DNA of 64,000 bases from a virus (Duplodnaviria; Heunggongvirae; Uroviricota; Caudoviricetes). The position numbers and the translations under genes are program-made. The stretch lies in the IMG/VR virus record IMGVR_UViG_2579778842_000003; one strand, given 5' to 3'. Under the pieces are notes generated by a model, which had not been told where the DNA came from, ran no database searches, and saw only the letters and a list, made by a program, of their open reading frames with translations. Positions 53,498 to 54,925 of the stretch are shown one piece after another (the stretch's first letter is position 1; each line of letters begins with the position of its first letter).

Positions 53498-53760
53498 TTA
53501 TCCACATTATCCACTGGGTAGATCCAATAATTAGGTCCATACAGATCCCAATTAGATCCATATAGATCCCTGATCGTTGCAGGCCGCGCCACGTCTGGCT
53601 TAGAAGTGTATCGCGATGTGTGCTGGAGGGAAAACGATGTGTGCTGACGGGATAAAAATGTGTGCTGACGGGTTGCTAATGTGTGCTGGCGGGATATAGG
53701 ATGTGTGCTGACGGGAAAGCCCGGGTAGTTATCACCGCTTATAAAAACTATCCACATAAT
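53498..53760. promoter_or_regulatory. oriR: oriR plasmid replication origin: tandem DnaA boxes, five GATC-containing heptamer repeats, incC iterons, distal DnaA box
   Basis: TTATCCACA and TTATCCACT at 53498-53515; GATC at 53521, 53545, 53555, 53565, 53572; iterons 53615-53719; TATCCACA near 53750. Confidence 0.75.
53615..53719 (+). repeat. incC: incC: five direct RepA-binding iterons (GATGTGTGCTGGAGGGAAA-like)
   Basis: Five copies of (G/A)ATGTGTGCTG(G/A)(A/C)GGG at about 21-bp spacing, directly upstream of repA. Confidence 0.85.
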
Positions 53761-53774
53761 TCGGAAAAAGTAAT

Positions 53775-54635
53775 ATGAATCAATCTTTTATCTCCGATAT
53801 TCTTTACGCAGACATTGAAAGTAAGGCAAAAGAACTAACAGTTAATTCAAACAACACTGTGCAGCCTGTAGCGTTGATGCGCTTGGGGGTATTCGTGCCG
53901 AAGCCATCAAAGAGCAAAGGAGAAAGTAAAGAGATTGATGCCACCAAAGCGTTTTCCCAGCTGGAGATAGCTAAAGCCGAGGGTTACGATGATATTAAAA
54001 TCACCGGTCCTCGACTCGATATGGATACTGATTTCAAAACGTGGATCGGTGTCATCTACGCGTTCAGCAAATACGGCTTGTCCTCAAACACCATCCAGTT
54101 ATCGTTTCAGGAATTCGCTAAAGCCTGTGGTTTCCCCTCAAAACGTCTGGATGCGAAACTGCGTTTAACCATTCATGAATCACTTGGACGCTTGCGTAAC
54201 AAGGGTATCGCTTTTAAGCGCGGAAAAGATGCTAAAGGCGGCTATCAGACTGGTCTGCTGAAGGTCGGGCGTTTTGATGCTGACCTTGATCTGATAGAGC
54301 TGGAGGCTGATTCGAAGCTGTGGGAGCTGTTCCAGCTTGATTATCGCGTTCTGTTGCAACACCACGCCTTGCGTGCCCTTCCGAAGAAAGAAGCTGCACA
54401 AGCCATTTACACTTTCATCGAAAGCCTTCCGCAGAACCCGTTGCCGCTATCGTTCGCGCGAATCCGTGAGCGCCTGGCTTTGCAGTCAGCTGTTGGCGAG
54501 CAAAACCGTATCATTAAGAAAGCGATAGAACAGCTTAAAACAATCGGCTATCTCGACTGTTCAATTGAGAAGAAAGGCCGGGAAAGTTTTGTAATCGTCC
54601 ATTCTCGCAATCCAAAGCTGAAACTCCCCGAATAA
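53775..54635 (+). CDS. repA: RepA plasmid replication initiator
   Basis: 286-aa ORF flanked by iteron arrays upstream (incC) and downstream (incA); size matches P1 RepA. Confidence 0.93.
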   Translation: MNQSFISDILYADIESKAKELTVNSNNTVQPVALMRLGVFVPKPSKSKGESKEIDATKAFSQLEIAKAEGYDDIKITGPRLDMDTDFKTWIGVIYAFSKYGLSSNTIQLSFQEFAKACGFPSKRLDAKLRLTIHESLGRLRNKGIAFKRGKDAKGGYQTGLLKVGRFDADLDLIELEADSKLWELFQLDYRVLLQHHALRALPKKEAAQAIYTFIESLPQNPLPLSFARIRERLALQSAVGEQNRIIKKAIEQLKTIGYLDCSIEKKGRESFVIVHSRNPKLKLPE

Positions 54636-54925
54636 GTGTGTGCTGGATGGCAGCTGCATTCAAAAAAATGTGTGCTGCCGGGAAGGCTTGTCCAATTTCC
54701 CGTTTTTGATGTGCGCTGGAGGGGGACGCCCCGCAGTTTGCTCAGACTTTCCCTCCAGCACACATCTGTCCATCCGTTTTTCCCTCCAGTGCACATGTAA
54801 TTCTCTGTCTTTCCCTCCAGCACACATATTTGATACCAGCGATCCCTCCACAGCACATAATTCAATGCGACTTCCCTCTATCGCACATCTTAGACTTTTA
54901 TTCTCCCTCCAGCACACATCGAAGC
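54634..54925. repeat. incA: incA: nine RepA-binding iterons in both orientations (copy-number control locus)
   Basis: Three forward copies (54634-54725) and six reverse copies (TTCCCTCCAGCACACAT-like, 54748-54920). Confidence 0.85.

Follow-up and report, generated by a model that had tools for sequence, protein, structure and literature searches.

The tandem DnaA boxes, GATC motifs and iterons that surround repA in a 64,000-base stretch of phage DNA (hereafter called the window) raise the question of whether they form a complete plasmid replicon of the P1 type, and whether this replicon works as that of P1 does. The original prediction claimed such a replicon for positions 53498-54925. When the region 53400-55100 was compared by megablast with the P1 records (K02380, AF234172/3 and NC_005856), it was found to be 97.9% identical over its full 1701 bp. 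Coordinates of the individual features were obtained by projecting the P1 annotation of AF234172 onto the window by global alignment (Table 1); the annotation of oriR, incC, repA and incA in K02380 and AF234172 is experimentally based. In this projection every replicon site annotated in P1 was present, with order and spacing unchanged. The P1 "R" (IncY) replicon corresponds to positions 53477-54920, a segment that differs from P1 by 23 substitutions and one 1-bp insertion; seven of the substitutions are located in iterons 13, 10, 9 and 8, and three are synonymous changes in repA. The comparison with P1 oriR that had been proposed as a check was run and defined an oriR with six mismatches to P1. 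The predicted start coincided exactly with the first DnaA box, but in the annotation oriR extends 21 bp further to the left, and incA stops 5 bp short of the predicted end.

Direct comparison showed the whole window to be 100.000% identical, without gaps, to the reverse complement of NZ_CP091040.1 (positions 50382-97720 followed by 1-16661). This record represents plasmid unnamed3 of E. coli W25K (97,720 bp, circular; pig, China), which is listed in PLSDB as non-mobilizable and with IncY as the sole replicon type. It was also the best plasmid match for 53400-55100 (100% identity) among the 744 plasmid records matched in the megablast search, 153 of which cover at least 80% of the query; at least 99% identity over the replicon region was found for 66 plasmid records. 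Given this identity to NZ_CP091040.1 and the similarity of about 98% between the remainder of the window and P1-like phages (SJ46, P7, P1, RCS47 and others), the window belongs to a P1-like phage-plasmid. Among 5426 complete E. coli genomes, the replicon was present in 362. The claim of a P1-type plasmid replicon was thus borne out by the DNA identity to P1, by a RepA protein 100% identical to that of P1 and by the complete identity to an IncY-typed plasmid. We consider it close to certain that the locus is the plasmid-prophage ('R', IncY) replicon of a P1-like phage-plasmid and that it works as that of P1 does; nothing was found that contradicts this explanation. The replicon itself is already known, being a textbook system since the 1980s that is located here in an already sequenced plasmid.

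Table 1. Features of the P1-type replicon and of associated maintenance modules in the 64,000-base window
Feature	Position	Strand	Basis or remark
cre, 343 aa	14420-15451	-	intact
loxP, 34 bp	15870-15903		exact match
phd-doc, 73 and 126 aa	22040-22641	-	intact
upfA homologue, small ORF	53065-53457		left of oriR
Terminator-like hairpin and T-run after upfA	53471-53491	+	consensus scan; conserved in P1 and P7
oriR, minimal P1 plasmid origin, 242 bp	53477-53718	+	AF234172 rep_origin projected; six mismatches to P1
Tandem DnaA boxes (left array)	53498-53515	+	same as P1 DnaA protein_bind feature, zero mismatches
Heptamer/Dam-site core	53520-53576	+	all five Dam sites of AF234172 present; 41% G+C
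Heptamer AGATCCA	53520
Heptamer AGGTCCA	53533
Heptamer AGATCCC	53543
Heptamer AGATCCA	53554
Heptamer AGATCCC	53564
GATC, Dam sites 5-1	53521, 53544, 53555, 53565, 53572		all retained relative to P1
G+C-rich spacer between heptamers and incC, 38 bp, 60.5% G+C	53577-53614	+	zero mismatches to P1; partly conserved in JK004
incC, five direct 19-bp RepA iterons (copies 14-10)	53615-53718	+	AF234172 projection
incC iteron 14	53615-53633	+
incC iteron 13	53636-53654	+
incC iteron 12	53657-53675	+
incC iteron 11	53678-53696	+
incC iteron 10	53700-53718	+
PrepA -35, TTGCTA	53673-53678		in incC; same as P1
PrepA -10, TAGGAT	53697-53702		in incC; same as P1
Right-hand DnaA box	53748-53756	+	one-mismatch match; in repA leader, between incC and repA
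repA, 286-aa iteron-binding initiator	53775-54635	+	ORF
incA copy-control locus, nine 19-bp iterons	54635-54920	both	P1 projection
incA iterons 9, 8, 7 (first positions)	54635, 54667, 54708	+
incA iterons 6-1 (first positions)	54748, 54779, 54810, 54841, 54871, 54902	-	last ends at 54920
Partition module	55111-57495	+	P1 annotation projected; adjoins the replicon, not part of it
Ppar and ParA operator	55111-55196
parA	55194-56390
parB	56407-57408
parS	57413-57495

The left edge of the annotated oriR is overlapped by the terminator-like hairpin that follows upfA. The tandem DnaA boxes at the left end (TTATCCACA and TTATCCACT) were found as predicted, were the same as in P1 and proved invariant across P1, P7 and Cronobacter phage JK004. 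An element that the original prediction had not listed is the right-hand DnaA box CTATCCACA, the best one in the second DnaA array; JK004 has retained TATCCACA. To the left of this box, A in P1 is replaced by G at position 53737, within a sequence which we take to be a weak DnaA box. P1 has two DnaA-box arrays, and the right-hand box belongs to the second of them (PMC4980987). Counted over the whole window, DnaA boxes were not enriched (21 observed versus 15 expected), and they are informative solely through their local tandem arrangement and its conservation.

In the adjacent core, all five GATC sequences annotated as Dam sites in P1 are retained. Five GATC within 55 bp make up the densest cluster of the window (expected 0.22 per 55 bp; Poisson P of about 4e-6 per position). 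The presence of five GATC-bearing heptamers, as had been claimed, was correct with respect to the number of GATC sequences, but just four of them are part of AGATCC(A/C) heptamers while the fifth lies in TGATCGT; an additional heptamer, AGGTCCA, is devoid of GATC. The P1 annotations run parallel to this: four heptamers are listed in K02380, and AF234172 has five Dam sites.

The five direct iterons of incC were confirmed by the projection from P1, and direct reading of incC showed five copies of ATGTGTGCTG..GGG. Their start-to-start spacing is 21, 21, 21 and 22 bp, equal to two helical turns, and helically phased iterons are required in iteron origins (PMC5043065). With up to two mismatches allowed, the iteron core ATGTGTGCTGNNGGG was detected 12 times inside the region of about 1.3 kb and three times in the other 62 kb or so of the window; none of 100 shuffles equalled the observed total. 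Both hexamers of the repA promoter PrepA are the same as in P1. They are weak, and PrepA was missed by a sigma-70 consensus scan that recovered Ppar and the upfA terminator. As the promoter is buried in the incC iterons according to the annotation of AF234172, RepA would be expected to repress its own synthesis.

The predicted repA gene was present as an ORF of 286 codons whose differences to P1 are confined to the three synonymous substitutions; its product is also 100% identical to RepA of P7. RepA matched the Pfam family Rep3_N (PF01051, the WH1 domain of iteron initiators) over residues 94-215 with 25.7 bits (gathering score 22.4), while the match to Rep3_C (PF21205, WH2) was just below the cutoff (20.5 versus 21.1 bits). 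This agrees with the published placement of P1 RepA in the RepE class, to which it is homologous as reportedly described by Sharma et al. (2004). A scan of NCBIfam assigned RepA to no family, and phmmer found no match among PDB sequences. A single-sequence AlphaFold2 model was too poor to use (mean pLDDT 37.4, pTM 0.23).

Downstream of repA, the nine incA iterons were recovered in both orientations as claimed, three on the plus strand and six on the minus strand, with iteron 9 overlapping the last base of the repA stop codon. Compared to P1, incA contains 10 mismatches and a 1-bp insertion. Four of the mismatches are inside iterons 9 and 8, and the other seven iterons are sequence-identical to their P1 copies. 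Iteron 8 is changed at position 1, and iteron 9 at three positions including a G-to-T exchange at position 14 (window position 54648), where all other 13 iterons of the window have G. In incC, iteron 13 carries a GA-to-AC change that results in the same core (GCTGACGGG) as in iterons 12 and 10, and iteron 10 carries a T-to-C change that restores the consensus. The notion that all elements are intact therefore held in so far as all of them are present, but iterons 13, 10, 9 and 8 deviate from P1 by 2, 1, 3 and 1 bases, respectively.

It is conceivable that the replicon, though structurally complete, is a copy-number or incompatibility variant in which the substitutions in these four iterons measurably alter occupancy by RepA and hence control. 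Such a variant would be in line with the three changes in iteron 9, which place a T at an otherwise all-G position, and with the double change in iteron 13; the 66 plasmid records with at least 99% identity over the region exclude a sequencing accident. Yet the change in iteron 13 copies the core of two other incC iterons, that in iteron 10 restores the consensus, RepA is unchanged, P1-like cores are kept in eight of the nine incA iterons, and the PLSDB type is still IncY. Moreover, positions 13-14 of iteron 9 are naturally polymorphic (GAGGG in P1, GAAGG in P7, GTGGG in JK004), and within incA this iteron seems to be under the weakest constraint. Judged from sequence, the G-to-T exchange could weaken one of nine control sites, and altered control as a whole is regarded as improbable. 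It is likewise unlikely that the variants, chiefly the G-to-T exchange in iteron 9 and in addition its two other changes and those in iterons 13, 10 and 8, slightly loosen incA control and lead to a measurably higher copy number or to weaker incompatibility toward P1 than is known for the textbook replicon.

Comparison with known replicons further delimits the P1-type replicon. The DnaA boxes, the five Dam sites and the PrepA hexamers are the same in P1 (K02380, AF234172) as in the window. P7, the other classical IncY prophage (AF503408, J03308), is 97.5% identical through oriR, repA and incA. Its iteron 9 departs from P1 at position 14, as does that of the window, but has A at this position. 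Similarity to P7 stops at window position 54923, just past incA; the par region of P7 is of a different specificity type, whereas the window contains a P1-type parABS with the box-B hexamers of P1. The most distant relative found at the DNA level was Cronobacter phage JK004 (MZ188976), with 79% identity in DNA and 85% in RepA, in which the genes at this locus are annotated as hypothetical proteins only. The two DnaA elements (tandem boxes and right-hand box), the GATC heptamers, all five incC iterons and an incA with iterons on both strands are also present in JK004, which differs by having eight incA iterons (no counterpart of iteron 5), four GATC sequences instead of five, and diverged spacers. 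In columns aligned between the window and JK004, motifs were 79% and spacers 51% identical (Fisher exact p=6e-12), which suggests that the sites themselves are under selection.

At a greater distance, the P1-type replicon was compared with replicons of the Rep_3 type, i.e., RepE/ori2 of F, R6K pi, pSC101 RepA, pPS10 RepA and RepFIB of IncF plasmids. The working logic would be the same in all of them: the winged-helix initiator acts in its monomeric form, the rep promoter lies under iterons of the origin, copy number is controlled by a further iteron cluster, and DnaA and chaperones are needed. Sequence similarity to P1 RepA is marginal (the above-mentioned 25.7 bits and the lack of a phmmer match in PDB), and the Dam-methylated heptamer core as well as control iterons located downstream of repA in mixed orientation are features of P1 relative to the other members.

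Outside the replicon, an ORF of the SIR2 family (435 aa; 11057-12364, minus strand) and a 213-aa ORF upstream of it (12421-13062, minus strand) together occupy the place of the P1 type III res/mod genes (11057-13062). The best PADLOC matches of the SIR2 protein were the candidate system PDC-S25 (1e-26) and ThsA (2e-17), and no PADLOC match was obtained for the 213-aa ORF. Probably, defence genes have been exchanged here, in a region already known to vary among P1-like plasmids. The second-densest GATC cluster of the window (19779-19965) falls within the terminase gene pacA and consists of two sets of four (C/T)GATCA hexamers (eight in total), a layout that presumably matches the Dam-regulated pac packaging site of P1. 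Three tRNA genes are encoded on the minus strand (45270-45345, 47150-47225 and 47228-47303) with the anticodons CAT (called Met), TGT (Thr) and GTT (Asn), respectively; three is also the number of tRNA genes in P1. At about 27100-29800 there are genes with the annotations ead/Ea22-like and DUF551, and this segment may represent mosaic DNA inserted into the backbone of P1. When positions 25-50 kb of the window were searched, 572 phage records matched, many of them from Stx-converting lambdoid phages. The window resembles P1 up to position 62986, and the last 1 kb or so (62987-64000), at the edge of variable region RD-3 of P1-like plasmids (PMC6906374), encodes part of a MazG-like protein unmatched in P1.

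The full set of cis sites and a RepA identical to that of P1 were read here from the sequence, and the steps by which the replicon would work are taken from the P1 literature. Host DnaK/DnaJ/GrpE or ClpA would turn inactive RepA dimers into monomers, which would occupy the five helically phased incC iterons. Host DnaA would bind to the boxes at the ends of the origin and, together with RepA and HU, would open the heptamer core, the putative strand-opening region, in its fully Dam-methylated form, since adenine methylation would be needed for opening. DnaB and the host replisome would be loaded next, and replication would be PolA-independent. After initiation, SeqA would sequester the hemimethylated GATC heptamers. 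In P1, the heptamer core has to be fully methylated by Dam, and DNA in the hemimethylated state becomes sequestered. Methylation is said to be the subject of work by Abeles & Austin (1987) and Abeles et al. (1993). The nine incA iterons would keep the copy number at about 1-2 per chromosome, in part by titration of RepA and mainly by 'handcuffing', in which RepA pairs them with incC on their own plasmid or on a sister plasmid and which Das & Chattoraj (2004) reportedly dealt with; the note to repA in AF234172, which mentions RepA 'to pair ...', is cited here for the pairing of incA with incC. According to published work on P1, the origin is opened by DnaA with great help from RepA, and chaperones generate RepA monomers; replication is initiated by the monomers and limited by the dimers (PMC5043065). 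Contributions of HU and IHF and mutations in iterons have been described as well (PMC4980987).

The maintenance functions that accompany the replicon were also inspected. ParA and ParB each differ from their P1 counterparts by one amino acid and matched Pfam families (HTH_54 in the case of ParA, and ParB families). The ParB A and B boxes are without exception the same as in P1; parS has five changed positions, of which two affect the annotated IHF site and three the spacer next to it. As parABS, cre-loxP and phd-doc are all intact, the window contains the full set of P1 prophage-maintenance functions, which would provide for segregation, dimer resolution and post-segregational killing, respectively. 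The predicted autonomous low-copy plasmid maintenance is consistent with these modules, with the circular IncY record and with the location on plasmids of 553 of the 564 places that match the replicon in complete E. coli genomes.

The other 11 of these places are chromosomal, and the window covers 64 of 97.7 kb, so that the lytic replicon (repL/oriL) and about 34 kb lie outside the part inspected. Both facts leave some room for the replicon being a silent passenger on a molecule that owes its maintenance to a different replicon or to chromosomal integration. This is very unlikely in view of the identical record, which is closed circular and has IncY as its only typed replicon, and of the annotation of the 64 kb, which holds no other Rep gene. 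The lytic replicon of P1 is repressed in the prophage state.

That the repeats belong to a CRISPR array or another repeat-spacer locus instead of a P1-type replication origin is out of the question for practical purposes: although Tandem Repeats Finder reported a 21-bp x 5 array (53614-53718) and a 31-bp x 2.6 array (54747-54827), the repeats are 19 bp long as opposed to 23-50 bp in CRISPR, where unique spacers are about as long as the repeats and all repeats point the same way, the gaps measure just 2-3 bp in incC and 11-22 bp in incA, the incA copies are found on either strand, the arrays flank an initiator gene of the Rep3 family, and the locus is the annotated oriR/incC/incA of P1. An Rfam scan of the window gave no CRISPR repeat family, and neither neighbouring cas genes nor 25-40 bp spacers with matches to foreign DNA nor processed crRNAs were present; with repeat length, spacer length and orientation all wrong, a CRISPR array was rejected. 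The earlier remark that repeat finders could take the iterons for CRISPR was right in that arrays are indeed reported, but the 2-3 bp 'spacers' of incC resemble CRISPR poorly.

Beyond annotation, the importance of the result is small. The replicon module is already included in surveys of P1-like plasmids, among their conserved or variable blocks, and P1-like phage-plasmids are relevant in practice because they carry genes for resistance and defence (PMC6906374). Flagging of the iteron arrays keeps repeat and CRISPR finders from mislabelling them. The P1-type replicon marks the window as part of a P1-like (IncY) phage-plasmid and explains its inheritance as a low-copy plasmid.
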